From an uncultured Pseudomonadota bacterium (GTDB lineage Bacteria; Oederibacteriota; Muellerivitia; Muellerivitales; Muellerivitaceae): 64,000 bases of DNA. The position numbers were made by a program, and so were the translations under genes. This document shows, in pieces, positions 48,735 to 64,000 of the stretch; the stretch's first letter is position 1, and each line of letters opens with the position of its first letter. The stretch covers positions 160,001-224,000 of the forward strand of contig CAWIIP010000005.1 in NCBI GenBank assembly GCA_963836235.1, given 5' to 3'. The notes below the pieces were generated by a model. The model was not told where the DNA came from, searched no databases, and worked only from the letters and a program-made list of their open reading frames with translations.

Positions 48735-49786
48735 CCCCAGTTCAATAGCGAAGTGCAACACTTAGCCCCGGCAGAATCCGGGGGTTATCCTAAGTTTTAT
48801 GAAACAATCCTACAAGCACCTGTCGTTGGCCGAACGTGAAGAAATCGCAGTTTGGAAGGCAGAAGGCCTCTCCATACGAGAAATCGCCCGACGCCTCGAA
48901 CGTGATGTGTCCAGTGTTTCCCGAGAGTTGAAGCGTAACGCACCACCTTTACGTCCTGGCCGTTATCTACCAGCTCGGGCTCACCTGCGATCTACCCAGC
49001 GTAACCAACTCTCTCGGACCCATCTGCGTCTCAAAAAACCAGGGATCCGACAACATGTTTTGCGTAAGCTTCATCAGGGGTTTTCTCCCGAACAAATTGC
49101 TGGTCAGCTTCGCCTTGAGAACTCCAAACTATTCATTTCCCACGAGGCCGTCTACCAGTTCATTTATTCCGAAGCCCGAAACCTCATCCCTCTCTTGGCT
49201 CGTTCCCATCGAAAGCGGCTTCGCCGATGGCATTCGCACAAACATCGAAAAAGCCATATTCCAGAACGAACTCCGATCACTCAACGACCCGCCATCGTGC
49301 AGACGCGGCGTCAATTTGGTCACTGGGAAGCGGACACCATCATCTCCAGAAAAAGTAAAGCCTCCCTTTTGGTGATGGTCGAACGAAAAAGCCGCCTCGT
49401 GAAACTCGCCTGGTTGCCTCAAAAGTCCGCTTCGAAAACACGAGCAGCTATCAATCGACGGCTCACCCTCTTTCCGAAGGGGTTGCGCCGGACCATTACT
49501 TACGACAACGGCTCTGAAAACATCGAGCATCTTCAAGTTAACAATCTCTTAGGAACCCGTTCCTTTTTCTGTCTTCCTTTCCACAGTTGGGAAAAGGGAA
49601 CCGTCGAAAACACTAATGGTTTGGTGCGGCGCTTCTATCCAAAGAAAACCGATTTTGCTACCATAACTCCAGCGAACGTGCGACGTGTGGAGCGGGCTCT
49701 CAACAGCCGTCCACGCAAGTGCCTTCGCTTCAAAACGCCGGAGCAGGTCTTTCGTCTAGGTGTTGCACTTACTGGTTGAATTCAGC
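48735..49786 (+). mobile_element. IS30-family insertion sequence with imperfect terminal inverted repeats and a 3-bp AAT direct repeat
   Basis: Left end CCCCAGTTCAATAGCGAAGTGCAACAC versus reverse-complemented right end GCTGAATTCAACCAGTAAGTGCAACAC; AAT at 48732-48734 and 49787-49789. Confidence 0.88.
48799..49779 (+). CDS. IS30-family transposase
   Basis: N-terminal HTH (YKHLSLAEREEI...SVSRELKRN), DDE residues in GHWEADT, TYDNGSE and WEKGTVENTNG, RPRKCL tail. Confidence 0.96.
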   Translation: MKQSYKHLSLAEREEIAVWKAEGLSIREIARRLERDVSSVSRELKRNAPPLRPGRYLPARAHLRSTQRNQLSRTHLRLKKPGIRQHVLRKLHQGFSPEQIAGQLRLENSKLFISHEAVYQFIYSEARNLIPLLARSHRKRLRRWHSHKHRKSHIPERTPITQRPAIVQTRRQFGHWEADTIISRKSKASLLVMVERKSRLVKLAWLPQKSASKTRAAINRRLTLFPKGLRRTITYDNGSENIEHLQVNNLLGTRSFFCLPFHSWEKGTVENTNGLVRRFYPKKTDFATITPANVRRVERALNSRPRKCLRFKTPEQVFRLGVALTG

Positions 49787-50978: not shown

Positions 50979-51716
50979 TCAATCCACCCGCAAACCGTCG
51001 GATTGAATGAAGTTGAAAACCTTTTCAAATACAGTCTGCTTATCGTAGTCCATGGTGACTACATGGTCGGACCGGTCTAGATATAGGAGGTGTTTAACCG
51101 GGGACCCCAAGGCTTGATAGACCAAATCCCCATTCGGGGGAGGAACCATCGAGTCTTTTCGACCCTGAATGACCAAGGCTGGGACCGTGATTTGAGGCAA
51201 TTCGGCCCGAACCAAGTCCATAAACTTTTTGAGTTCATAAAGGCTCTTCGTCGCCACGTAAGGATAGGTGAGATGGGGGGGGGACTGGGGGTCCAAAATC
51301 CCGCCCGTCAGGTTGGAAGTCCGCCACTGGAGGAACCGGAAAAAAGCGATGCCGTTAAAACGGAAATCGAAAATCCGCACCGGAGCCGCCATGGAAATAA
51401 CACCCGCCACGGGTACCTGGGTGGCCAGGTGAAGGGCTTGGTCGGCTCCCATGGAAAGCCCACCCACAAAAATCTTGGAACAGCTTTGCTTCAAGTGATC
51501 GTAGGCTTCTCTCGCGCTTTGCGCCCAGTCTTGCCATGTGGTCTTTGCCAGGTCATTTGGATTGGTATCATGGCCTTTCAACCAGGGCCCCAGCACCGAA
51601 TAGCCCTTTTCAGCTAAATAGTTCCCCAAGGGCTGAACCTCGGAGGGGGTCCCGGAAAGTCCATGAAGAAGCAATATGCCCGTTTCGCTTTTTTGGGACT
51701 CAAACCCAATCTTCAT
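50979..51716 (-). CDS. Alpha/beta-hydrolase carboxylesterase
   Basis: LLLHGLSG, GLSMG nucleophile elbow, DSMV, SDH. Confidence 0.88.
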   Translation of the reverse strand: MKIGFESQKSETGILLLHGLSGTPSEVQPLGNYLAEKGYSVLGPWLKGHDTNPNDLAKTTWQDWAQSAREAYDHLKQSCSKIFVGGLSMGADQALHLATQVPVAGVISMAAPVRIFDFRFNGIAFFRFLQWRTSNLTGGILDPQSPPHLTYPYVATKSLYELKKFMDLVRAELPQITVPALVIQGRKDSMVPPPNGDLVYQALGSPVKHLLYLDRSDHVVTMDYDKQTVFEKVFNFIQSDGLRVD

Positions 51717-51807
51717 TTAACCCAACTCCTTAACAACAAATACACGGCACTACCAAAACTCTTGATATTCGCTTCTCTGTGTCTTCGCGACTCCGTGGTG
51801 AAATTGT

Positions 51808-52425
51808 TTATGAAGGTTTTACCCCGTCCTGTTTTTGAATTTGCTGGAGGGTGAAAATGATTTCATTGTCCGTCGGGCGGTCCGTCGGGTCCTTACCTAT
51901 ATATTTATAACGAACGACCCGATTGGGATCGATAATAATGGCCGTCGGACGTGCGATATCTTTGCCCCCGTGCCCCTGAGGATGGCGGGCTCCATAGGCG
52001 TCTATCACGTGAAGTTGGGTGTCGGATAGCAGGGGGAAAGGAAAACGCCATTGCCCGTTGAATTGCGCCGAATCCTCCAAGCTATCCACGCTAACGGCAA
52101 CAATACTAGAATGCAGCGCGGTAAACCTGGAATAATCGTCCTTCAAACCCGCCAACTGCCCCTGGCAGGCGCCGCACCATTGGCCTCGGTAAAGAATCAG
52201 TACCAGGTACCACCCCGGCTTCAAGTCGGACATCTTTACCAACTGGCCTGTACTGCTCACCAAGGAAAAATCATAAGCTTTATCCCCAACCTGCAACCCG
52301 CCCGGCTTCAGCGGAACTGGGGGTTCCTGGGGACCACAGCCCTGGAATGACAGAACCGAAAAAGTCACTAGCCCTAATACAATAAACCATTTCGGAAAGC
52401 TCATCAGATTTTTCGTCCTTTTCAA
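51808..52425 (-). CDS. Peroxiredoxin-like (AhpC/TSA) thioredoxin-fold lipoprotein
   Basis: Lipobox-like FQGC, YRGQWCGAC (CxxC), FPLLSD, ARPTAIIID. Confidence 0.82.
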   Translation of the reverse strand: MKRTKNLMSFPKWFIVLGLVTFSVLSFQGCGPQEPPVPLKPGGLQVGDKAYDFSLVSSTGQLVKMSDLKPGWYLVLILYRGQWCGACQGQLAGLKDDYSRFTALHSSIVAVSVDSLEDSAQFNGQWRFPFPLLSDTQLHVIDAYGARHPQGHGGKDIARPTAIIIDPNRVVRYKYIGKDPTDRPTDNEIIFTLQQIQKQDGVKPS

Positions 52426-52491
52426 CTCCGAATTTAAATAGTCACTTTGGCTCGATTTTTTTCAGTAGCGAATTCATCATTTTACAGACAC

Positions 52492-52522
52492 GTTGACATT
52501 GTCAACCGCCCTTTTCAATAAT
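52492..52522 (+). promoter_or_regulatory. Putative promoter of leader 1 with an overlapping perfect palindrome
   Basis: TTGACA (52493-98)-18 nt-AATAAT; palindrome GTTGACA-T-TGTCAAC at 52492-52506. Confidence 0.55.
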
Positions 52523-52547
52523 ACCTCATTGAGGAGATGCCCTGCGT

Positions 52548-52838
52548 ATGAAGTTTTTTCGAAAATATCTTTTTTCATTCGCGACGGTTTCCTTCCTGTT
52601 CTTCGTGTCAGTCTTGGCTATTGAGGATGCTCACCACCACGACAATTTGGAAAGTCACAACGATTGTTCCCTTTGCGCCTGGCAATTAACCGGCTCCAGT
52701 GCACCTTCCACTCCGACTTCCCCGCTTTTATTTGGGACCTTTCTCTTCATTTTGCTTTTCACTTTCACGCCGCCCTTTTTGTCTTTCTTCAAATCTCATC
52801 CTTCTCTTGGCCGGGCTCCCCCACAAAACCTCCTCTAA
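52548..52838 (+). CDS. DUF2946/CruR-like leader peptide, copy 1 (His/CxxC plus RAPP arrest motif)
   Basis: GAGGAG RBS; hydrophobic N-terminus, HHHDNLESHNDCSLC, second hydrophobic stretch, GRAPP four residues before the stop. Confidence 0.85.
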   Translation: MKFFRKYLFSFATVSFLFFVSVLAIEDAHHHDNLESHNDCSLCAWQLTGSSAPSTPTSPLLFGTFLFILLFTFTPPFLSFFKSHPSLGRAPPQNLL

Positions 52839-52883
52839 TTATCTGTCATAAACGGCTTTCAGGCCGATTACACAGGAGGACTT

Positions 52884-53045
52884 ATGTCTTTTCATTTTAA
52901 TTTATTTTTTTGGATTGCTTCCATTTCATCTGCCTCGTCCAATTTCCCAGCCCACTTCAACATTTTCAACCCTGCTATCGGCACTAACACACTTTTTCAC
53001 TTTCAATCCGCTGACTTAAAAACAAAATGCGGAGGGAAAATATGA
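52884..53045 (+). CDS. Putative 53-aa small ORF coupled to the downstream gene
   Basis: AGGAGGA RBS, ATG at 52884, MSFHFNLFFWIASISS...KCGGKI*; the stop overlaps the next ATG (ATGA). Below the ORF-track length cutoff. Confidence 0.45.
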   Translation: MSFHFNLFFWIASISSASSNFPAHFNIFNPAIGTNTLFHFQSADLKTKCGGKI

Positions 53046-54241
53046 AAAAAAACGCTTTCGCTTTTTTAATTGCGGGGATGATTTGGGTTGCCGTGAATGA
53101 CGCTTGGAGTGATACCCGCATTGACTCCTTAAGTTCCGATCCTCGTTTCACGGAAGACCTGGACCTGATTTGGATGTATCCCCAAAAGGTGATCCAATAC
53201 CAAGACACGGCGGATTTCCGTTTGAACAATCCGGCCGTGGTGAGTTTGGGCGATCAATATGGCTTCGGAAGCCTTGGCGCCGGTGCTTCCGGATCCCACC
53301 AATACGAATGGGGTGGCGTTATCGACGGCAAGCAAAAGGATGTCGGGGTCCTAGGAGCCTACGTGAATCGGCCCTTTGTTCCCCTTTATTACACGGTTTA
53401 CGGGGAATACTGGCGCCCGGTGGGCGGCACAACCGCTTGGGGTTCCAGCGCCTTGCCCGCCAATAAGTTGGACCTTTTCTGGGCCCAGTCTTTTGGCACG
53501 ACGGATTTCGGTATCCGGCTGAACTACGGCGGCATGCAAAACAGCGGCACCGACTACTCTCGCACCTTGGGTGTGGATACAGGAATAGGATTCAAAGGTG
53601 GCGGTGCCTTCAGTGAGGCCAACTTTCACGCCGGTTATACCTTCGGAACTTTCCAAAACGGGGCTACTGGCATCAGGAGCAACGGCATCTTCTCCCTCAG
53701 CCTAGGCTCCCTGTTACAACATGACATGGGCCCGGACGACAACTTGAGGCTGTTCGGCGATCTCGGGTTGGACCAATACCAGGACACGTCCGGTTTCGAC
53801 ACCACTCAAACCCTGGCAACCTTGGGCGTTGCCATAAACCACGCGGTCCACAGTGGGAGAGGGCTTGTTTCGACGGGCCTAGTGACCAGTGGCGGCGGCG
53901 GTAACAACAAAACCAATTGGAGCGTCGGCTGGAACGGAAGTGTGGAGGATTCCTTGATCGATTGGCTGGTCCTGCGGGCGGGGCTTTTTAAGTCTATTTT
54001 CGACCAACAGTCCTCCGGCGGCGTTGTTTCCGACCTTACTGTTCCGAACACGGTGGTTTTCAGCGTCGGCGCGGGCCTCCACTTGGAGAATTGGGCCTTG
54101 GATACTAGGCTGTTAGTCAATTCCTTGGAAAGCAATTTAATCACCCCGGCGCCGGGGGAAGGCATTCTCTTTGCGCAAAGCAATCCGAGCAAAACATTCA
54201 TTGTCACTTTGATCGAAGCGGATTTGCGTTACTCCTTTTAG
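53042..54241 (+). CDS. Putative outer-membrane beta-barrel (porin-like) protein
   Basis: Signal peptide MKKNAFAFLIAGMIWVAVNDAWS, Gly/aromatic amphipathic strands, C-terminal DLRYSF. Confidence 0.75.
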   Translation: MKKNAFAFLIAGMIWVAVNDAWSDTRIDSLSSDPRFTEDLDLIWMYPQKVIQYQDTADFRLNNPAVVSLGDQYGFGSLGAGASGSHQYEWGGVIDGKQKDVGVLGAYVNRPFVPLYYTVYGEYWRPVGGTTAWGSSALPANKLDLFWAQSFGTTDFGIRLNYGGMQNSGTDYSRTLGVDTGIGFKGGGAFSEANFHAGYTFGTFQNGATGIRSNGIFSLSLGSLLQHDMGPDDNLRLFGDLGLDQYQDTSGFDTTQTLATLGVAINHAVHSGRGLVSTGLVTSGGGGNNKTNWSVGWNGSVEDSLIDWLVLRAGLFKSIFDQQSSGGVVSDLTVPNTVVFSVGAGLHLENWALDTRLLVNSLESNLITPAPGEGILFAQSNPSKTFIVTLIEADLRYSF

Positions 54242-54297
54242 GGCCGCCTTGTACTAAGGCTTGAATGAGTGATCATAAAGGTTGGGGAGAAACAGAC

Positions 54298-55302
54298 ATG
54301 CTGAAAAGTCCTTTTGTTTATTTTAGATTCCTGATTTTTGGGTTTATTTTCGCGCCCGCCTTTTCCCAAATCGCTTCCCAATTCCTAATCGAGGGAAATA
54401 AGGCCTATGAAGCGAAAGACTATGTCCAGGCCGCGGCCAATTACCAGAACGCCATCAAGGCGGATCAAAGTTCCGCGGGGGCCTATCAGGGCCTGGGAAA
54501 TTGTGACATTCAGCTTGGAAAAAAAGACGAAGCTTTGGCTCAGTATGAGAAAGCCCTAGCCTTAAATCCGGATAGCCGTCCGCTTAGTCAAGTAATCGGA
54601 TACTTGAAGGAAAGAGCCCCCAGTGTCACGGGGACAGGGAACTTTTCATCCACACCCACTGCTTCCCCCAATTTGAATTCTCAACTGGAAAAGCAGGAAT
54701 TGGACATTGAGACCTTGCGCCTCCAGGTGGACCAATTGAGGAAAGACGACACCGAGACGAACGGAAAGGCCCAGCGTTTCCAGTCCGCTAAAAAGTCCGA
54801 AGAACTGGCTAAAGCCGGAGAAAACAAGGAAAATCTTCTGGTTCTGGACTGGATAAATGGTGAAATTTGGAACAAGGGTGCCCGGTTCTCCATGACAAAA
54901 CTTTACGATTTGGCCCAAGCCCGGGGTTGGCCGGTCCAAAAAACACTGAAAAAAAGGTCTCCCGACGGCCGAGCGCGCTGGCATTATCAAATCCGTAATA
55001 TGTCCCTCACCCGTTATCAAGACCGGAGCCGGGGCATTTTTGAAATCCAAATCCCTTCCAAACCCGATGACTTCGAAATAGTCACAACCGAGGGAATAAA
55101 CTTTCAATCCTCCGCCGGCGACACAAGGGCCGACCTAGAAAACATTTATTTCGACTTTGAGGGCCAAGAGGATATTGGAACGGAGCGAATCCTTAAGTTC
55201 AAACGCAGCCAGGACCTGGATTTCGATGACAAGCTGGAAATTTCTTTCAGCGCTTCTGGGAGAATAACCAGTCTTCGGTATGGCGTTCTAGACGAGCATT
55301 GA
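54298..55302 (+). CDS. Exported TPR protein with coiled coil and an unrecognised C-terminal domain
   Basis: Signal peptide, TPRs (AYQGLGNCDIQLG...YEKALALNP), LEKQELDIETLRLQVDQL coil. Confidence 0.75.
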   Translation: MLKSPFVYFRFLIFGFIFAPAFSQIASQFLIEGNKAYEAKDYVQAAANYQNAIKADQSSAGAYQGLGNCDIQLGKKDEALAQYEKALALNPDSRPLSQVIGYLKERAPSVTGTGNFSSTPTASPNLNSQLEKQELDIETLRLQVDQLRKDDTETNGKAQRFQSAKKSEELAKAGENKENLLVLDWINGEIWNKGARFSMTKLYDLAQARGWPVQKTLKKRSPDGRARWHYQIRNMSLTRYQDRSRGIFEIQIPSKPDDFEIVTTEGINFQSSAGDTRADLENIYFDFEGQEDIGTERILKFKRSQDLDFDDKLEISFSASGRITSLRYGVLDEH

Positions 55303-55328
55303 AATTAAAAGAGCCGTGAGGTTAGAAT
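55299..55328 (+). promoter_or_regulatory. Putative promoter of leader 2
   Basis: TTGAAA-18 nt-TAGAAT. Confidence 0.45.
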
Positions 55329-55371
55329 GACGCTTCTTCAAATTGGAACAGTTTAGAGGGGCAAGGGACAA

Positions 55372-55662
55372 ATGAAGTTTTTCCGCAAATACCTTTTCCC
55401 GTTCGCCACGGTCGCCTTCCTGGCTTTCGTGTCGGTCCTCGCCATTGAGGGCGCCCATCACCACGACAACCTGGAAAGCCATAACGATTGTTCCCTTTGC
55501 GCCTGGCAATTAACCGGCTCCAGCGCCCCTTCTACGCCTACTCCCCCACTCCTCTTTCATTCTCTGATCTTCGTCTCACTTTTCATCTTCACGCCTCTTT
55601 TTGTTTCTTCACTTAAGTCTTTTCCGTCTCTCGGAAGGGCACCTCCTTCCATCCTCCTGTAA
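55372..55662 (+). CDS. DUF2946/CruR-like leader peptide, copy 2 (His/CxxC plus RAPP arrest motif)
   Basis: 77 of 96 residues identical to copy 1 by manual alignment; same HHHDNLESHNDCSLC and GRAPP; precedes a TonB-dependent receptor. Confidence 0.87.
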   Translation: MKFFRKYLFPFATVAFLAFVSVLAIEGAHHHDNLESHNDCSLCAWQLTGSSAPSTPTPPLLFHSLIFVSLFIFTPLFVSSLKSFPSLGRAPPSILL

Positions 55663-55669
55663 CGATAGC

Positions 55670-55705
55670 TTCAGCCTTGTTGGATTGAGGCTGAATTTCG
55701 ATTTT
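55670..55705 (+). terminator. Candidate attenuator hairpin just after the leader 2 stop
   Basis: TTCAGCCT...AGGCTGAA inverted repeat followed by TTTCGATTTT. Confidence 0.5.
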
Positions 55706-55845
55706 CAGGGGGATTTTCCCTTGGGCTTCGCCCAATCGTAAAGTCCCATCACAATTAAAATTTTCAATCATGGTTTTGGCGCTATCCATCCCCCGCGGGA
55801 TGAATGGTTCTAAAACCGCGAATTCCATTCATACAGGGGACAAAA

Positions 55846-58272
55846 ATGACCATTTATAAAAAGTTGATTTTACTGCTGTTCATGCTTTTTAGTTTTTGCG
55901 CTAGTCGAGCCTTGGCCACAGTAGATGGAGCCCTTTCCGGAACCGTCTTGGACGATAAAGGTGTTGCTGTACCCAATGCCAAAGTAACCATTACGGGCAA
56001 TGGCATTGAAAAAGATTTAACCTCTTCGACCACGGGGACTTTCCAGGTCTTTCCCTTGACGATCGGGGATTACCAGGTAAGCGTCCAAGCTGACGGGTTC
56101 AGCCTTTATCAAGGAACCGTTGCGGTTTCGGGTAACTCCTCATCGCTGGAAGTCCGCCTTTCACCGGGAGGTGAAATGCAAATGACGGTGAAGGCCAAGC
56201 GGCATCTCGTCACGCCCGCTTCCAATAGTAGCCGGGACCTAAATTCCGACGAAATCGCCCAACTCCCGGAAGGGGCGACTACCAGCCTTCCTAAACTGCT
56301 TTACACCACGACCGCCGGGTTCGTGGAGGGTGATTTTGGCCAAGTCTTCACCCGGGGCAACCACGCCAATTTGCAGTACCAGATTGATGGCATCCAACTT
56401 CCCGATTCGGTCGGAGGCTCCTTTGGGGAAGCCTTCACACCGGTCAATATCGACCACATGGAAATCCTGACCGGCGGTTTGGCGCCCGAGTTCGGGAGCC
56501 GTATGGCCGGCGTGGTTAATATCGTGACCAAGTCCGGAACGACCCAACCGGGAGGGGAAATCGGCGTGGATTACGGGTCTTATAACCAATCGTCATCCTA
56601 CGCCAATTACGGAGGCTCGGACGGCTCGGGTACCTTCCACTATTTCCTCTCGGCCAATGCTTTCTCGACCGACCGGGGTTTGGATACCCCCGCGCCCGCC
56701 GACATCAATAACGACCAAAACGGTGGCAGCGAACAAGCCATCCACGACAAAAGCTACGGTTCGGATGGCTTTGTCAAATTTGATTGGGTCGCCGACAACC
56801 TGAATAAGTTCGTCTTGGTGGCCTTCAGCGAAAACAAATTTTTCCAGATTCCCAATTACGACAGTTCTTTCGATCCTGGAGGCCCCAACTTCGCCTACTT
56901 CGGAGGCTTAACGGATGCCTATGGGAACGGCCCCTTTAATTATGTGCCTTCGACGACCAACGACACCCAATCGGAGTCGAATAAATACGTGGAGTTGGCC
57001 TGGAAGCACACCTTTGACGACAACTCCTTCATCCAGATAGCCCCCTATTGGAAAGAGTCCAATCTCACCTTCACCAATGATCCGGCCAACGACCTGGCTT
57101 ACGCCCAAAGCCAGTACGATTCCGTGGCCGCCGCGTTGGGAAGCATCACCGAGTCTTCTTTTTCACAAGACCGCACCAGTGACAACTTCGGAACCCAGGT
57201 GGATTACACTTGGCACGCCGATGACAACAACCTGATCAAAGCGGGAGGCCAAGTTCTCTTGACCCAATCCTCGGGTCCCGTTTCGGTCATCGAGGCCGCC
57301 AATACCGGAACCGGCCCTGTGACGACGGCCAGCGGCGATGATTCCGCCGACACCGGTTATCAGGAAGGGGTCTATGTTCAGGATGACCTGATCTTGGCCA
57401 AATGGCTGGTCTTGAACAGCGGTATCCGATTCGACGCCACCCAATACGTGTTTCCGGACACTACGACGACCGACAGCAATTGGGGTCCACGTTTAGGTTT
57501 GAGTATCCTCCCCAGCGAATCCACCAAGTTCCACGTCTTTTACGGCAAGCTTTTCATGCCGGCGCCACCCGAGGATTTGAGGGACACCTTCGTCAACCTG
57601 GGCGCGGGGAACCAATTGGCCCCCTACGACATCAAGGCAGAGAAGGACGATTATTTTGAGGCCGGGGTGGCCCAGCAGGCGGGGGATCAACTGTTTACCC
57701 TCAACACTTATTACAAAAGCGCGGTCAACATGCTGGACGAGACCCAGCTGTTGAACACCGCCATCGCCCAACCTTATAACTTCGCGACAGGCTACGCTTA
57801 TGGGGTGGAGTTTTCTATGCGCGGCACGGTCGCCAAGGATTGGTCGGATTTCGCCAACTATTCTTACGAAATTGCCAAGGGCCAGGGAATCAGCGGGGGG
57901 CTCTTCGCCTTCCCCGCCGGAACGAACTTTGAGCCTGGTGACTACCAGTTCCTGGACCACTGCCAGATCCATACGGCCAACGGGGGTTTGACCTACAACC
58001 CCGGTGATATCTGGATCACCGCGGAAGGGCTCTTCGGCGGGGGCTTAAGTACGGGCCCCGACAACAGCCTGAGACTGCCGTCTCACTTTACGTCGGACCT
58101 CACCTTAGGCTACGCCTTCAAGAAAGACAGCGGCCTTTCAGGGCTCAAGGCCAGTCTGGATGTGTTGAATGTCCTCAACAACCCCTACGTCATCTTCATC
58201 GACAACGGCTACAACGGAAACCATTACGAGAACGGCCGGGAATTCATTTTCCACTTGGCCAAGACGATTTAA
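55846..58272 (+). CDS. TonB-dependent receptor with N-terminal carboxypeptidase-regulatory-like domain
   Basis: Signal peptide, LSGTVLDDKGVAVPNAKVTI, plug motifs YQIDGI and IDHMEILTGGLAPEFG..AGVVNIVTKSG, barrel ending NVLN...GREFIFHL. Confidence 0.93.
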   Translation: MTIYKKLILLLFMLFSFCASRALATVDGALSGTVLDDKGVAVPNAKVTITGNGIEKDLTSSTTGTFQVFPLTIGDYQVSVQADGFSLYQGTVAVSGNSSSLEVRLSPGGEMQMTVKAKRHLVTPASNSSRDLNSDEIAQLPEGATTSLPKLLYTTTAGFVEGDFGQVFTRGNHANLQYQIDGIQLPDSVGGSFGEAFTPVNIDHMEILTGGLAPEFGSRMAGVVNIVTKSGTTQPGGEIGVDYGSYNQSSSYANYGGSDGSGTFHYFLSANAFSTDRGLDTPAPADINNDQNGGSEQAIHDKSYGSDGFVKFDWVADNLNKFVLVAFSENKFFQIPNYDSSFDPGGPNFAYFGGLTDAYGNGPFNYVPSTTNDTQSESNKYVELAWKHTFDDNSFIQIAPYWKESNLTFTNDPANDLAYAQSQYDSVAAALGSITESSFSQDRTSDNFGTQVDYTWHADDNNLIKAGGQVLLTQSSGPVSVIEAANTGTGPVTTASGDDSADTGYQEGVYVQDDLILAKWLVLNSGIRFDATQYVFPDTTTTDSNWGPRLGLSILPSESTKFHVFYGKLFMPAPPEDLRDTFVNLGAGNQLAPYDIKAEKDDYFEAGVAQQAGDQLFTLNTYYKSAVNMLDETQLLNTAIAQPYNFATGYAYGVEFSMRGTVAKDWSDFANYSYEIAKGQGISGGLFAFPAGTNFEPGDYQFLDHCQIHTANGGLTYNPGDIWITAEGLFGGGLSTGPDNSLRLPSHFTSDLTLGYAFKKDSGLSGLKASLDVLNVLNNPYVIFIDNGYNGNHYENGREFIFHLAKTI

Positions 58273-58281
58273 TTAGTTGTA

Positions 58282-58318
58282 GGAACCGCCGGTTGCATCC
58301 GGCGGTTCCATTATTTTG
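58282..58318 (+). terminator. Hairpin between the receptor and exbB (terminator or mRNA stabiliser)
   Basis: GGAACCGCCGG-ttgcat-CCGGCGGTTCC followed by ATTATTTT. Confidence 0.6.
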
Positions 58319-58337
58319 ACGTGATAAAGGAGAAGAC

Positions 58338-58973
58338 ATGAACGGTTTTTTTGAAGGGTTTAAATTCATCTTCCGGGGCGGTTTCATGATGGTTCCACTC
58401 CTAGCCTCTTCTTTGCTGGCCTTGACGGTGATCATCGAACGCTGGAAGGCGCTTCACAAGCAATTCGTAACCCCTGCTGATTTCGCCCAAGGGGTCTTGG
58501 CTAAAGTCCAGGAAGGAAAAATGGCCGAGGCTCTCAAGCTTTGCGAAGGCAAGTTCATTCCCGTGGCGGCGGTGCTGAAGGCGGGCCTTGAACATTTCAA
58601 GAACCCGACGGCGGAAATGGAAATCGCCATGAAGAACGAGGGCGAAAGCTGGGTGCCCGTCCTGGAAAAAAGGGTCCACGTTTTGGATACCACCATCACC
58701 ATCGCTCCCCTGATGGGACTCCTGGGAACGATCATCGGCATGATGGGTTCCTTTAAAGTCCTGACTCAAAGCGGGGTGGATGACCCCTATTCCATCACGG
58801 GTGGGATTGCCGAGGCCCTCATCGCTACTGCCACCGGGCTGGTGATCGCCTTGGTTTGCGTCATTGCCAACAATTACTTCAACACCGACATCAAGAATTT
58901 CATTTACGAAATGGAATCGGCGGCATCCCGCCTCTTGGAAACCCGCATGGCTTCCGAAAGGAAGAAAAGCTGA
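58338..58973 (+). CDS. exbB: ExbB/TolQ/MotA proton channel
   Basis: GGFMMVPL, IAPLMGLLGTIIGM, GIAEALIATATGL. Confidence 0.92.
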   Translation: MNGFFEGFKFIFRGGFMMVPLLASSLLALTVIIERWKALHKQFVTPADFAQGVLAKVQEGKMAEALKLCEGKFIPVAAVLKAGLEHFKNPTAEMEIAMKNEGESWVPVLEKRVHVLDTTITIAPLMGLLGTIIGMMGSFKVLTQSGVDDPYSITGGIAEALIATATGLVIALVCVIANNYFNTDIKNFIYEMESAASRLLETRMASERKKS

Positions 58974-59383
58974 TGCAAATCCGACAAAGGCCGGTTAAAC
59001 GCGTCCGCATCGAGATCATTCCCATGATCGATGTCATCTTCTTCCTATTGGTGTTCTTTATGGTCACTTCCCTGGCCATGACCCGCATCAACAGCGTCAA
59101 GGTGCTCCTTCCAAAGATGTCCGGGAAGGCGGAAAACATGAGGCAAAACATCATCCTCACGGTGAAAAAAGACGGAACTCTTCTGGTCAATAAAACCCAG
59201 GTGACTCTGGACACTCTGGGATCTCAATTGACCTACCAAATGCAGGCCAATCCCCAGGATGTCGTCATCGTGAACGCCGACGAGGCCGCCGGTTACGGCT
59301 TGGTTGTCCAGGCCATGGACAAGGCCAAGCAGGTGGGCGTGCGCAAGTTCGCCCTGGTGGCCGAGGCGGACAAGGACCAATGA
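58973..59383 (+). CDS. exbD: ExbD/TolR biopolymer transport protein
   Basis: IEIIPMIDVIFFLLVFFMVT, VIVNAD..A.YG.VV.AMD. Confidence 0.92.
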   Translation: MQIRQRPVKRVRIEIIPMIDVIFFLLVFFMVTSLAMTRINSVKVLLPKMSGKAENMRQNIILTVKKDGTLLVNKTQVTLDTLGSQLTYQMQANPQDVVIVNADEAAGYGLVVQAMDKAKQVGVRKFALVAEADKDQ

Positions 59384-59982
59384 CGCTCGCGGACAGCCTT
59401 TTAAAATCCGGTGAAGACGAAAAAAGATTGCGCCAAGCCGCCGGGATCGCCCTGGGTCTGGAAATTCTTTTTTTCCTCGCCCTGGGCATCAGCCATCTTC
59501 CCTTCCTGCGGAACCCCTTTGATTCGGCCAACTACGTTGAAGCCCAGATCGTCCAACTGCCCGCCGACGCCCACTTGACCGGAGCCGCAACCGCCCCAGA
59601 CGAGGATGAGGTGGTCTTCAGCCGGAAACAAAGCCACAAAAAAAAAGCTGAGAAGAAAGAACTTCCGAAAGCCCCAGAGCAAAACCAGGTAAATGCCGGT
59701 CCCGATTTGGGGCCCACCCATGGGCCGGTGGCCTTTTACGCCCCGGCCCCGGTCATTCCCGCTTACTTGCGGGACCAGAACTTAAAGACCAGCGTGGTCA
59801 TCGAGTTCCTCATCACGGCCCAGGGAGCGGTGACTCCCCGGCTTTTGGAATCCAGCGGGAATGACGAGCTGGACGCCATTGCCTTAAGGACCGCCTCGAA
59901 ATGGCAGTTCAAACCGGCGGCCCAGAACAATATTCCGATCGATTCAAAGACGCGCTTAAGGATCATTTTCGAGGTTTCTTGA
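59380..59982 (+). CDS. tonB: TonB family energy transducer
   Basis: N-terminal TM anchor, short charged linker, TonB C-terminal domain (ESSGNDELD.IAL...KWQFKPA). Confidence 0.85.
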   Translation: MTLADSLLKSGEDEKRLRQAAGIALGLEILFFLALGISHLPFLRNPFDSANYVEAQIVQLPADAHLTGAATAPDEDEVVFSRKQSHKKKAEKKELPKAPEQNQVNAGPDLGPTHGPVAFYAPAPVIPAYLRDQNLKTSVVIEFLITAQGAVTPRLLESSGNDELDAIALRTASKWQFKPAAQNNIPIDSKTRLRIIFEVS

Positions 59983-60007
59983 TAACGAGTTGAAAAAGGA
60001 GACAAAA

Positions 60008-60697
60008 ATGAAAGTTCTTGAAGTCATCAATTTGAAAAAGTCTTACCTGTTGCCCGAAGGCGACAGGCACATGGTCGTCAACATCGACCATTTTTACATG
60101 ACCTCTGGCGCTGAAATGGCGCTGGCCGGCGAGAGCGGATCGGGCAAAACCACTTTTTTACATCTCATCTCGGGCGTATTGAAACCCGATAGCGGGGAAA
60201 TCCATCTGGATGGAAAAAGGATGGATATCCTTCCCGAAGCCGGAAGGGACAGCCTGCGCTCCAACCTGCTGGGATATGTCTTCCAAAACTTTAATCTCTT
60301 GCAGGGCATGACCGCCCTCGAAAATGTCGAATTGGCCATGCGGTTCGGCAAGGGAGTCAATCAAGAAAGGGCCGTTTCGCTTTTAAAGCGGATGGGTCTT
60401 TCGGAAAGGCTTCACCACTATCCCCGACAGCTATCCATGGGCCAGCAACAAAGGGTGGCCGTAGCACGGGCCCTTGCCAACCGCCCACGGCTGGTGATGG
60501 CGGACGAACCCACGGCCCACTTGGACCATATCCGGGGAAAGGAAGCCGTCAATCTGATGCGCGAAGTTTGCCGGGAATTCGAAGCGGCTTTACTGGTTGT
60601 GAGCCATGACCGGGAAGTATTGTCCAACTTCAAACATGTCCAGCATTTTGACCGATTGAACCGTGTGCTTCATGTGAGCCAGGGGGTGAAGCCATGA
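60008..60697 (+). CDS. ABC transporter ATP-binding protein (LolD/MacB-like)
   Basis: GESGSGKT, LSMGQQQRVAVARAL, MADEPT, VSHD. Confidence 0.93.
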   Translation: MKVLEVINLKKSYLLPEGDRHMVVNIDHFYMTSGAEMALAGESGSGKTTFLHLISGVLKPDSGEIHLDGKRMDILPEAGRDSLRSNLLGYVFQNFNLLQGMTALENVELAMRFGKGVNQERAVSLLKRMGLSERLHHYPRQLSMGQQQRVAVARALANRPRLVMADEPTAHLDHIRGKEAVNLMREVCREFEAALLVVSHDREVLSNFKHVQHFDRLNRVLHVSQGVKP

Positions 60698-61950
60698 ATA
60701 CATTGATTTTCCTGGCCGGGCATAGTTTACGGCGGCATGCCATGTCAACCCTTGTCACCGCCTTTTCGGCGGCCTTGGCGGTCGGCCTGACTTTATCCGT
60801 CTTTGGTTTGGCCGCCCAGACCCGCGCGGCCTTTATGGGTGGAGCCGGGGGTTTTGACGCTGTTCTGGGTGCCCGTGGAAGCCAGCTCCAGTTGGTCTTG
60901 AACGCCGTGTTCCAGTTGGAAACCTCACCCGGCAATATCCCTTGGAGCCTTTATGAAACGATCAAGGCGGACCCACGGGTTTCGGAAGCGGTGCCTTACG
61001 CGGTCGGGGACAATTATTTCGGTTACCGGATATTGGGAACGACTCTGACCGTACGGGATGAACTGCGCAATTCCTCGGGTAAGCCCCTGGAGTTGGAGGA
61101 AGGCGGAAAATGGTTCAATGAAGAGAACCGGGAAGCGGTGGTAGGCTCGGTTGTAGCCCAAAAATGCGGGCTTCAGGTCGGCAGTACCTTCCGGCCCTAT
61201 CACGGCTTAGCTTTTGATCCTGCCATGCAACATGAAGAGACCTATCAGGTGATGGGCGTCCTGAAACCTTCCAATACGCCGATTGACCGGGTCATCTTCA
61301 TTCCCCTGGAAGGCTTCTACCGGATCAAGGGCCACATCTTGCGAGGATCGGGCAAAGATTATGTCCCCCAAGCGGGCCAGCCCATTCCAGATGAGGACAA
61401 AGAGCTCAGCTCTGTCCTGCTGAAGTTGAGGGACCCCCAGGCGGGCTTCAATCTGGATTACACCATCAACAAACAAGGCAAAGTGGCAACCCTGGCTTGG
61501 CCCATCGGGCGCGTCATGGCCGACCTCTTCAACCGGCTGGGCTGGATGAGCCGCATTCTCGCCCTCGTGGCCTACTTGGTCATGGTAGTAGCGGCTTGCT
61601 CAATTCTGGCCGCGCTTCATAACACCATGAGGGAGAGACGCAGGGAGTTCGCCATCCTGCGGGCTTTGGGAGCCAAGCGACGCACCGTGTTCGCCTCGGT
61701 GGTGACCGAAGCCGCCTCCATCGCCGCCTTGGGGGCCTTGGGCGGATACCTGGTTTATGGCCTTTTGTTTTTCCTGGCCGCCGGGTTGGTTCGGGCCCAA
61801 ACGGGAGTCGTCGTGGACCCCTTCTTTTTCCACCCGGCCCTCATTGCCGTGCCCATCGGTATGACGATTTTAGGCGCTTTGGCGGGGGTCGTACCGGCCT
61901 ACCAAGCCTATTCCACCGATGTGGCCGGAAACTTAGAACCCCATTCATGA
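60694..61950 (+). CDS. ABC transporter permease (FtsX/MacB type)
   Basis: LGARGSQLQLVLNAVF, GDNYFGYRILGT, ERRREFAILRALGA; one TM, a periplasmic domain, then three TMs. Confidence 0.9.
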   Translation: MNTLIFLAGHSLRRHAMSTLVTAFSAALAVGLTLSVFGLAAQTRAAFMGGAGGFDAVLGARGSQLQLVLNAVFQLETSPGNIPWSLYETIKADPRVSEAVPYAVGDNYFGYRILGTTLTVRDELRNSSGKPLELEEGGKWFNEENREAVVGSVVAQKCGLQVGSTFRPYHGLAFDPAMQHEETYQVMGVLKPSNTPIDRVIFIPLEGFYRIKGHILRGSGKDYVPQAGQPIPDEDKELSSVLLKLRDPQAGFNLDYTINKQGKVATLAWPIGRVMADLFNRLGWMSRILALVAYLVMVVAACSILAALHNTMRERRREFAILRALGAKRRTVFASVVTEAASIAALGALGGYLVYGLLFFLAAGLVRAQTGVVVDPFFFHPALIAVPIGMTILGALAGVVPAYQAYSTDVAGNLEPHS

Positions 61951-61960
61951 GGAGGAAAGC

Positions 61961-62452
61961 ATGAAACATTCACATTGGATTCCTTTGGCTTTAATGCTTT
62001 TATCCACCGGCCTCGTGGCTGAAGTCTACGGCGGCCCTTCCCCGGACGGAACAACACCCGTCACAGAATCCGTCAAACCCGGTTTTGAACCCAAAGCCCC
62101 CCATGGGGGTGTTCTGGTGGATGCGGGTGATGACTTTGCCCATGTGGAAATAGTCTTCGATCCCGCCGTTGGAAACCTTTCGGCCTATATTTTAGATGGG
62201 GAGGCCGAAGAAGTAGTCCCGCTAAAACAACCGGAAATCCTGGTGCGTTTAATGAAGCCGACCCGAACCCTGAAACTCAAGGCGTTGGTCAATCCATTAA
62301 ACGGTGAAAAACTCGGAGCAACTTCCTCTTACGGCCTGACGGACCCTTCTTTAAAAGGCCTTTCCCATTTGCGGGGTGTCTTGTTATCAGTGGATTTCAA
62401 CGGCCAGGTCTTCAAAAACCTGGCCTTTCAATTCCCGTCGAAAAAGGAATAG
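61961..62452 (+). CDS. Exported hypothetical protein with PHGG...HVE motif (possible metal binding)
   Basis: Signal peptide; KAPHGGVLVDAGDDFAHVEIV..LSAYILD. Confidence 0.7.
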   Translation: MKHSHWIPLALMLLSTGLVAEVYGGPSPDGTTPVTESVKPGFEPKAPHGGVLVDAGDDFAHVEIVFDPAVGNLSAYILDGEAEEVVPLKQPEILVRLMKPTRTLKLKALVNPLNGEKLGATSSYGLTDPSLKGLSHLRGVLLSVDFNGQVFKNLAFQFPSKKE

Positions 62453-62460
62453 CAGGGCGG

Positions 62461-63129
62461 ATGGAAAAGCACTTAGAAAAAGGAATGGTTTATATGGCCA
62501 CTTTCGGAGTTTTTCTTTTGTTTTCCGCTAGCCCTATTTTAAGCCAGGACATGCGCAAATATTCGTCCGGAGACGATGGAGCACCCACCGTCGAAGGGTC
62601 GGGATCGGCCAACGACGCCAGGATCCAAGCCCTCAGCCAACTTAAGGACCCCATCATCCATATCAAGCCTGAGGACCTGGAGGGAAAGCCCTTGGTCGAT
62701 TTCAGTCGTCTGGCTTGTTTCAATTACGACTATCCGGATGAGGACGGCGGCATGGAGGCCTCCAAAAACCCCAAAAGGAAAAAGCCGGGTATTCCCGATT
62801 CGGTTTTGAGTTTGAACGGAACCAAGGTCGCCATTCCCGGTTTCATGATTCCCATGGACCAGGATGAGGGCGGGGATAAGTGCACCTACTTTATTTTGGC
62901 CCGCAACCAGATGACCTGCTGCTTCGGCGTGGCGCCGGGCTTGAACGAGTGGGTGAGCGTGCGGATGGAAAAGGGAAAAACCGCCGACCTGGAAATGGAC
63001 CGCCCGGTCGTGGTGGTGGGAACCCTGGAAGTCGGAGAGGTTTATAGCCCCGATTCGGGCTGGAGTTTTTACCGGATGAAGGCCGAGAAGGTCATTGTCG
63101 CCGGGAAGAAAAAGATTTGGTTCCAATAA
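62461..63129 (+). CDS. DUF3299-like protein, copy 1
   Basis: LNGTKVAIPGFMIP, FILARNQMTCCFG..P..NEWV.V, PVVVVGTL. Confidence 0.78.
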   Translation: MEKHLEKGMVYMATFGVFLLFSASPILSQDMRKYSSGDDGAPTVEGSGSANDARIQALSQLKDPIIHIKPEDLEGKPLVDFSRLACFNYDYPDEDGGMEASKNPKRKKPGIPDSVLSLNGTKVAIPGFMIPMDQDEGGDKCTYFILARNQMTCCFGVAPGLNEWVSVRMEKGKTADLEMDRPVVVVGTLEVGEVYSPDSGWSFYRMKAEKVIVAGKKKIWFQ

Positions 63130-63139
63130 GGGGGGCGCC

Positions 63140-63862
63140 ATGAACAGGAAAGAAAGACGGATGTATGAAAAACCGGCCGACCCGGCCAAAACAGCGATGG
63201 TCTCGAAGGCCCATTGGCCCTGGTCGCTGATCGTTATTACTATATTTTGGCTTGGCCTAACCGTGTTTCTCATTAAAACCAACGGCCTGAAAAAGGGGGC
63301 GGGTTGGGGCAAGCTTTTCCTTTCCAAGGCCGCGCCCCAGAACTTGTCGGGCTTCAACGGGTCTTCCCCCGGCCTTTCCGCTTCTCCCACCATTTATGTG
63401 CCGGGGGCGCCCCAAGCCACGGGCGATTACGAAGCTCTTTCATTCAATCTTTTATCGGGTTTTTATTTTTGGGACCCATTGGATGACACTGAAAACGGCA
63501 CAGCGGAGCAAAACAAAAAAAAGAGCAAAGTTCCGGAAAATGTACTGGCTTATAACGGCCATAAGATAGCGGTGACCGGGTTCATGATTCCCATCGACGA
63601 GGACGAGAAGTTCATCGTGTCCAGCTTTGTTTTGGCCAAAAACCAGATGACCTGTTGCTATGGGGCTTCTCCCAAGCCCAATGACTGGATTTACGCGACC
63701 GTCCCCGCAACGGCTAAAAAAGTAGAAGACCAAATGGATATTCCCCTGACAGTTTATGGAACCTTGACGATCGACAGCTCCCTCAGCGATCCGAGCATGC
63801 CCACACTTTACCGCCTCGTCGTGGACAAGGTAGAAGGTCCCAAAAAGAAAGGGTGGTTTTAA
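63140..63862 (+). CDS. DUF3299-like protein, copy 2 (membrane anchored)
   Basis: YNGHKIAVTGFMIP, FVLAKNQMTCCYG..P.PNDWI, PLTVYGTL. Confidence 0.78.
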   Translation: MNRKERRMYEKPADPAKTAMVSKAHWPWSLIVITIFWLGLTVFLIKTNGLKKGAGWGKLFLSKAAPQNLSGFNGSSPGLSASPTIYVPGAPQATGDYEALSFNLLSGFYFWDPLDDTENGTAEQNKKKSKVPENVLAYNGHKIAVTGFMIPIDEDEKFIVSSFVLAKNQMTCCYGASPKPNDWIYATVPATAKKVEDQMDIPLTVYGTLTIDSSLSDPSMPTLYRLVVDKVEGPKKKGWF

Positions 63863-63868
63863 GTTACC

Positions 63869-64000
63869 GTGAATTTCAATCTACTAAAGAATCCTCAGGA
63901 CAGGCCTATAAAGCAAACTGACATCGGCTCTCCACGGTGTCGAAACTGGATTCTTTTTTTATTGTCCTTGGCGGCCCTTTCACTCCTCCCTATTATCCCC
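63869..64000 (+). CDS. Possible start of a further exported protein (truncated by the window end)
   Basis: Frame open from a GTG at 63869 to the end, finishing RNWILFLLSLAALSLLPIIP (signal-like). Confidence 0.3.
   Translation, partial: MNFNLLKNPQDRPIKQTDIGSPRCRNWILFLLSLAALSLLPIIP

Follow-up and report, generated by a model that had tools for sequence, protein, structure and literature searches.

The window analysed here is a 64,000-nucleotide stretch of DNA from an uncultured soil bacterium (contig CAWIIP010000005.1, positions 160,001 to 224,000). It carries two short, paralogous open reading frames (ORFs), one ahead of a beta-barrel gene and the other ahead of a TonB-dependent receptor operon. 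An earlier reading of the letters alone, called the original prediction below, took both for metal-sensing leader peptides that stall the ribosome. A third such leader lies just past the window end. All three are here read as cis-acting arrest leaders of the DUF2946/CruR/CutF kind, with the messenger RNA (mRNA) read-outs proposed below, a reading to which the analysis gives a probability of about 0.7.

The host genome is 3.97 Mb long and 99% complete, and the window is part of its contig 5. Its sequence relatives are genomes assembled from metagenomes and bear the labels candidate division FCPU426 or “uncultured proteobacterium”.

Three leaders and their genes

Leader 1 (52548..52838, plus strand) and leader 2 (55372..55662, plus strand) are each 96 residues long. 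They align without gaps and share 77 of the 96 residues, which reproduces the coordinates and the identity given originally. Both start with MKFFRK and a hydrophobic, signal-like N-terminus, followed by HHHDNLESHNDCSLC (H29-31, H37, C40, C43), which in leader 1 reads HHH...H..CSLC. Next come a Ser/Thr/Pro stretch, a second hydrophobic stretch that acts as a spacer, GRAPP at residues 88-92, four further residues and the stop codon; the signal peptide and transmembrane assignments are a reading of the sequence only. The RAPP codons lie at 52812-52823 in leader 1, whose tail is QNLL, and at 55636-55647 in leader 2, which is of the TonB-receptor type and has the tail SILL. From C40 to R89 the spacing is 49 in both, and 45 residues stand between C43 and R89, matching the distance of about 45 first noted between CxxC and RAPP.

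At the DNA level the two ORFs agree at 216 of 288 nucleotides (nt). Thirty-three codons differ by synonymous changes only and 19 by non-synonymous ones, and the Nei-Gojobori estimates are 1.49 for synonymous divergence (dS), 0.135 for non-synonymous divergence (dN) and 0.09 for dN/dS. The leaders thus duplicated long ago and selection acts on the peptide sequence, so that the coding selection claimed for both ORFs is upheld. Codons 37-48 of both leaders (52656-52691 and 55480-55515), around CSLC, are identical at 35 of 36 bases despite a whole-ORF dS of about 1.5. This near-identity may reflect gene conversion or a constraint at the nucleotide level.

The locus had been credited with two leaders. 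When run against the whole genome, the DUF2946 model returned both ORFs and a third leader on contig 5 at 224669-224965 (window-equivalent 64669-64965), 669 nt beyond the window end, which raises the number to three. Leader 3 (2669-2965 in the coordinates of locus L013) has 98 residues, with HHH, CSLC and RSPP, and its own TTGACA/AATAAT-like promoter. CSLC occupies residues 40-43 in all three copies; the arrest motif is RAPP at 89-92 of 96 in copies 1 and 2 and RSPP in copy 3. Weak DUF2946 matches elsewhere in the genome include one with an internal TGA (L003) and one inside a 533-residue frame (L005).

The gene order of the locus has three parts. The first opens with the minus-strand AhpC/TSA gene and goes on with a promoter-like site, leader 1, an ORF of 53 codons, the beta-barrel gene bar404 and a gene for a TPR protein. 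The second runs from a promoter-like site through leader 2 to the genes for a TonB-dependent receptor, ExbB, ExbD, TonB, an ABC ATPase, an FtsX permease, a 163-residue protein and three DUF3299 proteins. The third comprises leader 3, the porin bar378, ZnuA, ZnuB and a strong hairpin.

The promoter-like site before leader 2 (TTGAAA-18-TAGAAT, 55299..55328, plus strand) was found by promoter scan, and similar sequence lies upstream of the leaders in the related loci L007 and L008. After leader 2, a gap of 183 nt leads to the TonB-dependent receptor gene (55846..58272, plus strand), whose product has an N-terminal CarboxypepD_reg domain by Pfam; its start is likely, with the Shine-Dalgarno sequence GGGGA at 55836-55840. 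It is followed by ExbB, ExbD and TonB (58338..59982, plus strand; Pfam and synteny) and by a MacB/LolD-type ABC ATPase, an FtsX permease, the 163-residue protein and two DUF3299 proteins (59990..63862, plus strand; Pfam and NCBIfam). The third DUF3299 protein is encoded past the window end. Together the ATPase, permease, 163-residue and DUF3299 proteins resemble ZrgB/C/E. The Pfam matches to the receptor, ExbB, ExbD, TonB, ABC ATPase, FtsX and DUF3299 confirm that copy 2 stands ahead of a TonB-dependent receptor operon. Neither the receptor nor the 163-residue protein matched any solved structure in sequence searches.

Leader 3 is followed after 36 nt by the gene for a 378-residue OprP-like porin (bar378, L013 3002-4135) and then by ZnuA and ZnuB (L013 4180-5924; Pfam ZnuA 2e-48, ABC-3 for ZnuB 4e-31), with the strong hairpin after them. 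A ZnuC gene is absent beside ZnuB at this locus. In two distant relatives, ZnuB is directly followed by a MacB/LolD-type ATPase and an FtsX permease. The predicted fold of bar378 is a porin with 16 predicted strands (pLDDT 81.6), and its best structural match is the phosphate porin OprP (E 1.5e-12), in agreement with weak Pfam matches to Porin_O_P and BBP2. An alignment of the bar378 family has invariant His127 and His129, a nearly invariant His373, and invariant Glu63, Glu98 and Glu267. Judging from this alignment, the conserved His and Glu residues may form a metal-selective constriction.

The leader family and the genes it precedes

Leaders of this kind are already in print. CruR (Bp2923 of Bordetella pertussis, a DUF2946 protein with C90 and R139) heads an operon and is separated by 162 nt from a TonB-dependent transporter gene; as the text of that report describes it, copper sensed through CxxC relieves an arrest at RAPP, and Rho-dependent termination follows (PMC9426467, Roy et al. 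2022). Small ORFs ending in RAPP or RGPP are described as enriched upstream of TonB-dependent receptors and of copper genes, and CruR as arresting in vitro, its toeprint placing the two Pro codons in the ribosomal P and A sites (main text of PMC12992588). In CutF of Rhodobacter capsulatus, copper is reported to induce stalling, which melts a stem that hides the next ribosome-binding site (10.1101/2025.02.05.636593). DUF2946-like proteins have been sorted into 29 sequence clusters with Cys, His or mixed sites, and some members have been argued to sense other metals such as nickel and cobalt (main text of Ozturk et al. 2023, PMC9973294). The original prediction did not recognise a doubled leader that also controls a non-TonB barrel; because RAPP upstream ORFs before TonB receptors and the idea of non-copper metals are both published, the kind of element is a known one.

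The gathering cut-off of the DUF2946 model (PF11162) is 23.7 bits. Copy 2 scores 25.3 bits and copy 1 scores 19.5, so that a DUF2946 search of the two ORFs places the former above and the latter below the cut-off; copy 3 has no Pfam match at E 0.01 and reaches 14.3 bits in the genome search. With the match of copy 2, the CxxC, the C-terminal RAPP and the spacing of 49, the proposal of a RAPP arrest leader like CruR is supported. On these sequence features, leaders 1-3 are assigned to the published DUF2946/CruR/CutF kind of RAPP arrest leaders.

When 18 close homologs were aligned, H29-31, E35, C40, C43, Q46, R89, P91, P92, L95 and L96 were invariant. A profile of these homologs matched 177 cluster representatives at E up to 0.001, and motifs were counted in the best 150 of the 177. 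Among these, CxxC occurs in 149, RxPP in 139, HHH in 121 and all three in 113; the arrest motif is RAPP in 98, RSPP in 27 and RGPP in 9. The first Cys lies 46-52 residues before the Arg in all 139 sequences with CxxC and RxPP, and 48 or 49 before it in 94 of them. HHH stands 11 residues ahead of the Cys in 91 of 120 profile hits. After RxPP come 0-16 residues, mostly 1-7, and the commonest tail has four. The sequence between CxxC and RxPP varies while its length stays fixed.

Metagenome contigs were also scanned with a DNA pattern for HHHDDxxxHxDCxxC only. At least 120 stretches matched, and 80 loci were fetched. Among these, RxPP lies 47-50 residues past the first Cys and 1-10 residues before the stop codon in 75 of 78 complete ORFs. 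Since the ORFs were picked by the His/Cys motif alone, the metal site and the arrest motif are tied to each other at a fixed distance. The site, HHHxDxxxHxDCxxC, has four conserved His and an Asp in addition to the two Cys.

Leader-profile matches occur in 32 of the 99 genomes searched in the phylum (own genome included). In the window's own family they occur in 26 of 30 genomes, with up to three per genome. The gene after 31 leaders of related genomes (own copies excluded) encodes a bar378-type porin in 19 cases, a TonB receptor in 10 and a DUF3299 protein in one, with one unscorable. Leaders thus stand first before transporter genes in 30 of 31 cases, and the predicted placement is borne out by synteny. 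For the porin type, 6 kb of context was fetched for 14 loci from 14 genomes. The order leader, porin, ZnuA is found in all 14, followed by a ZnuB match in 13; two porin-type loci of other families continue with the ABC ATPase, FtsX, 163-residue protein and DUF3299 genes.

In the fetched metagenome set, a downstream ORF could be scored for 64 leaders. These ORFs encode bar378-like proteins (20), TonB receptors (10), ABC ATPases (4) and a ZnuB-like protein (1), and TonB_C/Plug proteins in two cases, after the two leaders that lack RxPP. Another 12 encode mutually related proteins, with called lengths of 90-233 residues, that make up one cluster and lack a Pfam match. The leaders before this cluster are L068, L073, L075, L081, L084, L088, L095, L097, L100, L111, L119 and L133, and their tails include RGPP-ITMT and RAPP-ALSA. 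None of the copper families PCuAC, YcnI, CopC, PepSY and Sco appears among the 64 first downstream ORFs, as far as the metagenome matches listed go.

Further copies are found within single gene sets. In the relative L009 an additional leader (10793-11020) lies between TonB and the ABC ATPase gene, and in L008 one (3773-4135) lies 440 nt before a DUF3299 gene. The leader is therefore a cassette used at several points of one gene set. In the relative L031 (1498-2385, genome G048) a leader lacks a stop codon, and its frame stays open across the linker and on into the porin gene, so that the two form one ORF.

Proposed read-outs in the mRNA

An RNA pairing accompanies the porin-type leaders. In 15 sequences the codons after RxPP read CCUCCUG or CCCCCUU, complementary to the porin Shine-Dalgarno region 35-50 nt downstream, which is either CAGGAGG or, after UUUA, AAGGAGG. 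Between the tail and the Shine-Dalgarno sequence there is a small hairpin. In the alignment of the 15 sequences 92.8% of cells are paired, compared with 35-55% when the partners are slid by 1-3 columns, and none of 500 shuffles reached the pairing or the covariation score. At the junction, 8 sequences have a G-C pair and 3 a U-A pair, and the remaining 4 are unpaired there. The residues encoded by the tail differ (LL, PL), although its RNA stays C-rich.

In the proposed porin-type read-out (copy 3; degraded in copy 1), the CCUCCUG codons after RAPP would pair with CAGGAGG, the Shine-Dalgarno sequence of the gene that follows. A stall at RAPP would place the ribosome over the tail codons, free the Shine-Dalgarno sequence and turn porin translation on. 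The toeprint of a ribosome lies at about +16 from its P-site codon. The tail, at about +9 to +17 from the P-site Pro codon, falls inside the mRNA channel of the stalled ribosome, and it is for this reason that a stall would free the Shine-Dalgarno sequence. The four-codon tail would then be explained, because the inhibitory arm lies inside the leader, where the stalled ribosome covers it.

Copy 1 shows a weakened form of this helix. Its last codons hold the anti-Shine-Dalgarno sequence CCUCCUC (52829..52835, plus strand; alignment and pair counts), with one mismatch relative to the family's CCUCCUG. A small conserved hairpin CGGC-loop-GCCG follows (52853..52866, plus strand), with 96% of cells paired and 2 of 5 pairs changed on both sides. 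The partner of the tail, CAGGAGG (52873..52879, plus strand; alignment and pair counts), is the Shine-Dalgarno sequence of the 53-codon ORF (52884..53045, plus strand), an N-terminal remnant of a porin gene of the 378-residue type (BLASTP E 4e-04 over NPAIG..LF). The TGA of the remnant overlaps the ATG of bar404 (ATGA).

The bar404 gene (53042..54241, plus strand; length 399/404 residues) encodes a 399-residue outer-membrane beta-barrel without a Pfam or NCBIfam match (AF2 pLDDT 62, pTM 0.67). Its best match in the PDB is 9gf0, a Bdellovibrio outer-membrane protein (E 8e-11). It is partnered by the TPR protein gene (54265..55302, plus strand; Pfam TPR_2 7.6e-10), which adjoins bar404 homologs in 9 of 11 loci checked. 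Such homologs are present in 19 of the family's 31 genomes (own genome included). Within 1.5 kb of them, no ORF of the form CxxC...RxPP was found at any of the 11 loci, including that of a same-genus relative at 74% identity. Copy 1 was originally said to precede a porin-like gene. A beta-barrel gene does follow; a remnant ORF stands between the two, and the barrel is not the leader's usual partner, being leaderless in 11 of 11 related loci.

The promoter and upstream DNA of leader 1 match AhpC-adjacent receptor-type leaders of relatives, and the body of leader 1 is 80% identical to leader 2. Matches to the porin-type leader 3 cover the tail QNLL of leader 1, the hairpin, the Shine-Dalgarno sequence and the opening codons of the next ORF. 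Therefore copy 1, as its sequence matches indicate, is a chimera of the two leader types produced by recombination, and it stands ahead of a module that is leaderless elsewhere. Comparison of the DNA upstream of bar404 orthologs with the region after copy 1 revealed no clear similarity, and the borders of an insertion were not found.

The chimera could be a relic of rearrangement without a regulatory role, with bar404 and the TPR gene expressed independently. The leaderless pairs in 11 of 11 loci and the reduction of the next gene to a 53-codon remnant are in line with this, as are a C-C mismatch in the tail at the covarying pair and the absence of the tail:Shine-Dalgarno helix from the minimum-energy fold. 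Copy 1 is also less well kept than copy 2, at 73% against 84% identity to the L006 ortholog. However, the ORF is intact with every motif present, and the conserved promoter is kept. The terminator scan calls nothing on the plus strand from 52838 to 53042, the remnant has a strong Shine-Dalgarno sequence, and the ATGA overlap is the usual arrangement for translational coupling. A relic is thus a substantial possibility that falls somewhat short of even odds, and control of bar404 and the TPR gene by copy 1 through the remnant ORF is modestly favoured.

Upstream of leader 1, and divergent from it, lies an AhpC/TSA-redoxin family gene with a lipoprotein-like signal (51808..52425, minus strand; Pfam AhpC-TSA 2.3e-27). 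It is a conserved neighbour of the leader-1 type, adjoining and divergent in 5 of 7 related loci. The promoter-like site of leader 1 (TTGACA-18-AATAAT, 52493..52522, plus strand; promoter scan) has its -35 hexamer back to back with that of a minus-strand promoter-like site (52505-52476), which yields TTGACATTGTCAA. This promoter sequence is kept upstream of AhpC-adjacent leaders in the related loci L006, L009, L010 and L011. The sequence TTGACATTGTCAA (window 52493-52505) is a perfect palindrome and is kept in relatives. As a candidate operator it was set aside, being accounted for by the two back-to-back -35 hexamers of divergent promoters, which is the simplest explanation; alternatively, it may be a repressor site. 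Genome-wide there are 131 matches with at most two mismatches, compared with 61 for the reversed control, and no regulon emerged. Further upstream, an ORF of 326 residues at 48799-49779 has, by eye only, the look of an IS30-type transposase.

A different structure follows copy 2. The tail arm AUCCUCCUG (codons 94-96; 55651..55659, plus strand) is predicted to pair with a G-box, CAGGGGGAU (55706..55714, plus strand), which is followed by UUUU and is unchanged in 7 of 8 sequences. By RNAalifold and single-sequence folding, this pairing encloses a 3-bp helix and a terminator-like hairpin at 55670-55695, after which comes UUUCGAUUUU (55670..55705 for hairpin and tract, plus strand; terminator scan). 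In the hairpin 7 of 8 pairs are changed on both sides among the 8 sequences; in the tail:G-box helix 94% of cells are paired, with no compensatory change. A second conserved hairpin, UUGGGC-UUC-GCCCAA (55721..55735, plus strand), has 94% of cells paired and two pairs changed on both sides. Overall, 91.5% of cells of the copy-2 structure are paired in the 8 sequences, and a single fold of the region gives -40 kcal/mol with a z of -2.7. The DNA from the RAPP codons through the stop codon is nearly invariant in the 8 sequences, synonymous sites included. With the P-site codon at 55642-55644, the tail arm lies at +9 to +17.

Some candidates around this structure have lesser standing. RNAalifold also pairs the Pro-Pro codons with the receptor Shine-Dalgarno sequence over 200 nt, a result given little weight. 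A relay of four segments, in which the G-box would pair with a C-box (GUCCC) and the C-box with the receptor Shine-Dalgarno sequence, was indistinguishable from chance: its 92.5% and 85% of cells paired were matched by 340 and 173 of 500 shuffles. An Rfam scan of 51500-64000 at E up to 1 gave no match. A TTG seven bases after the G-box opens a frame of five codons ending in TAA (55721-55741), seen by eye in 4 of 8 aligned relatives; as it overlaps the conserved hairpin, this small frame may be an accident.

In the proposed copy-2 read-out, the tail would pair with the G-box 45 nt downstream and close the structure around the covarying terminator-like hairpin. A stalled ribosome would block this closure, and read-through would be favoured. 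Such an intrinsic attenuator is given slightly less than an even chance. In the second half of leader 2, C makes up 39% and G 11%, with G locally down to 5%, and the genome has a rho gene (719 bits). A C-rich, G-poor 3' half together with the presence of rho makes Rho-dependent termination as in CruR, with the RNA helices secondary, a serious alternative, somewhat less probable than not and tentatively ranked behind the attenuator. The gap of 183 nt compares with 162 in cruR, and the excess of C over G through the 3' half of the leader is as the text on cruR describes it (PMC9426467). The conserved, covarying hairpin with its U-tract speaks for the attenuator, as does the preservation of tail and G-box at the nucleotide level, including synonymous sites, although both are compatible with Rho all the same.

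Proposed arrest, probable metal and known systems

The proposed mechanism has the same first steps for all copies. Each leader would be translated from its own or a shared promoter and act in cis as a regulatory peptide. At R-A-P-P the ribosome would arrest, its P and A sites occupied by the two Pro codons, as judged from the structures of ApdA/ApdP and the toeprint of CruR. HHHxDxxxHxDCxxC would by then have left the exit tunnel, at a distance of 48-62 residues from the peptidyl-transferase centre. The arrest would last without metal, and metal binding would release it. This polarity is adopted because CruR behaves in this way and because all controlled genes are uptake genes.

The sensed metal is probably zinc, a choice that draws on gene context. 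Zinc is preferred to copper because the targets are ZnuA-ZnuB and ZrgBCE-like genes, a conserved setting that suits the earlier suggestion of a non-copper metal. Among NCBIfam models the ZnuA homolog matches that of the zinc protein AztC best, with a score under the model's cut-off. The solved structures most similar to the homolog are those of zinc binders (Lbp/Lmb at 5e-20, then Synechocystis and E. coli ZnuA), with manganese binders at 6e-10. The position of the His in “vtqHtaF” of 3gi1 is taken to separate zinc from manganese binders, and the ZnuA homolog has a His aligned with it. In Vibrio, zrgE (DUF3299) stands beside zrgB and zrgC (ABC permease and ATPase) in a table of the Zur regulon; zinc deficiency induces zrgB/C/E 76- to 148-fold, with zrgE at 76-fold (PMC9817125). 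The table of a Zur study on Caulobacter places a DUF2946 gene at the head of the efflux genes czrCBA (PMC4176598).

The same mechanism could serve copper or several thiophilic metals, as in CruR and CutF. Both studied family members are reported to be copper-responsive, and published accounts call CxxC a recognised motif for copper binding (PMC9426467; 10.1101/2025.02.05.636593). AhpC_TSA genes are named among DUF2946 operon partners in copper contexts (main text of PMC9426467), and one lies beside leader 1. This is nevertheless unlikely: the conserved partners are ZnuA, ZnuB and ZrgBCE-like genes, zinc binders are the nearest relatives of the ZnuA, the 64 downstream ORFs include none of the copper families that Roy et al. 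name, and beside its two Cys the site has four conserved His and an Asp. Moreover, not all members are copper-specific according to Ozturk et al. (main text of PMC9973294). Far less probable still is that the peptides are stable small membrane or periplasmic metal-binding proteins acting in trans, as chaperones or transporter accessories, with RAPP incidental. A signal-like N-terminus with a second hydrophobic stretch, conserved residues after RAPP and purifying selection over the whole ORF would suit such proteins. However, RxPP is always 0-16, mostly 1-7, residues from the stop codon, RAPP-like tetrapeptides are strongly avoided, being described as among the most avoided in bacterial proteomes (main text of PMC12992588), and conservation of the tail is explained at the RNA level. 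From CxxC to RxPP the length is fixed (46-52) and the sequence is not, which fits a ruler better than a fold. CutF itself is reported as undetectable in vivo and as working only in cis (main text of PMC9973294).

Several points weigh against the reading of leaders 1-3 as arrest leaders with these read-outs. Copy 1 is under the Pfam cut-off, and copy 3 has no Pfam match at E 0.01. Copy 3 and many relatives carry RSPP, which like RDPP is described as only partially permissive in ApdA/ApdP (main text of PMC12992588). The receptor has no sequence match to any solved transporter. CxxC, the two studied copper-sensing relatives and the AhpC_TSA neighbour speak for copper. In the porin type, the three U-A sequences are related, so that the compensatory change may be one event, and a Shine-Dalgarno sequence is conserved for its own reasons. 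In the receptor type, the tail:G-box helix shows no compensatory change, so that it is compatible and unproven, and the structures were counted on the same alignments that yielded them, which favours them. The inner hairpin begins 28 nt past the P-site codon, so a stalled ribosome would not melt it directly. Finally, the C-richness may simply reflect Pro, Ser, Thr, Leu and Phe codons.

A broader proposal can be made tentatively, at less than even odds. The site HHHxDxxxHxDCxxC, a ruler of 47-50 residues, R[AS]PP and a four-codon anti-Shine-Dalgarno tail would together form a portable, zinc-responsive nascent-peptide switch, and the first zinc arrest peptide. If this is true, a zinc-uptake regulon is wired after transcription in an uncultured phylum and in many metagenomic lineages. 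The portable module would stand before a TonB receptor, a His-bearing OprP-like porin with ZnuAB, the ABC/FtsX/DUF3299 set, or DUF3299 alone. The length of the tail would be fixed by the need for the stalled ribosome to cover the anti-Shine-Dalgarno sequence, which would account for an arrest motif fixed a few codons before the stop. Nascent-peptide regulation would be widened to another essential metal; the studied family members are two, both copper-sensing. A porin family with conserved His would be named as a candidate outer-membrane metal channel, and the parts are compact, with a leader of about 300 nt and a linker of 40 nt.

The general principle is already in print, and the present case is an extension rather than a new kind of system. 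The words porin and zinc do not occur in the main texts of PMC9426467, PMC9973294 and PMC12992588 (supplements aside), and the main text of PMC12992588 also lacks ZnuA, Shine-Dalgarno and stem-loop (appendix figures aside). In the literature collection searched, no paper joins an arrest peptide with ZnuA, and among the papers listed there on ribosome stalling and leader peptides none speaks of zinc uptake. Going by the main texts, what appears to be new is the HHH-CxxC subfamily, the porin-ZnuAB and Zrg-like targets, the modular use in several copies and the anti-Shine-Dalgarno tail.

The closest known system is CruR. Like CruR as its report describes it, leader 2 is an upstream ORF that comes first, ahead of the gene for a TonB-dependent transporter, and combines CxxC with RAPP near the C-terminus at a spacing of 49. 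The long gap (162 nt in CruR, 183 after leader 2), the C-rich, G-poor 3' half and the likely polarity, in which metal turns uptake off, are also alike. Unlike CruR, which has 145 residues, leaders 1 and 2 have 96, with an added HHHxDxxxH cluster and a hydrophobic spacer. The context here points to zinc, three copies share one locus, and the targets also include a porin with ZnuAB, an ABC transporter and DUF3299. Pairing of the codons after RAPP is a further difference, one that the passages on CruR do not describe (PMC9426467).

CutF shares with the present leaders a DUF2946-like sequence and the logic proposed for the porin type, in which stalling undoes an mRNA stem that shields the next Shine-Dalgarno sequence. 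According to its preprint (10.1101/2025.02.05.636593), CutF has CxxxC, PPP, a dependence on EF-P and a detoxifying oxidase as target, whereas CxxC, RAPP and uptake genes are found here. The anti-Shine-Dalgarno arm also lies inside the leader's own last codons, unlike that described for CutF.

The small ORFs with RAPP or RGPP are alike in encoding small secreted or membrane proteins with a C-terminal RAPP-like motif upstream of TonB-dependent receptors in Gram-negative bacteria (main text of PMC12992588). SecM, MifM, VemP, ApdA and ApdP, which are monitoring substrates of Sec or YidC, share the R-A-P/G-P arrest core. In those systems secA, secDF or yidC lies downstream and translocation force brings release, whereas the genes here encode metal transporters and the metal site is conserved. 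The proposed porin-type read-out would be the logic of SecM and CutF with the inhibitory arm placed inside the leader.

Finally, the controlled genes resemble those of the ZrgABCDE and ZnuABC systems of Vibrio, with matches for DUF3299 (ZrgE), the ABC permease and ATPase (ZrgB/C), ZnuA and ZnuB. The Vibrio genes are under control of the Zur repressor, and the passages on that control mention no leader peptide (PMC9817125). Here, in contrast, leader peptides precede the genes.

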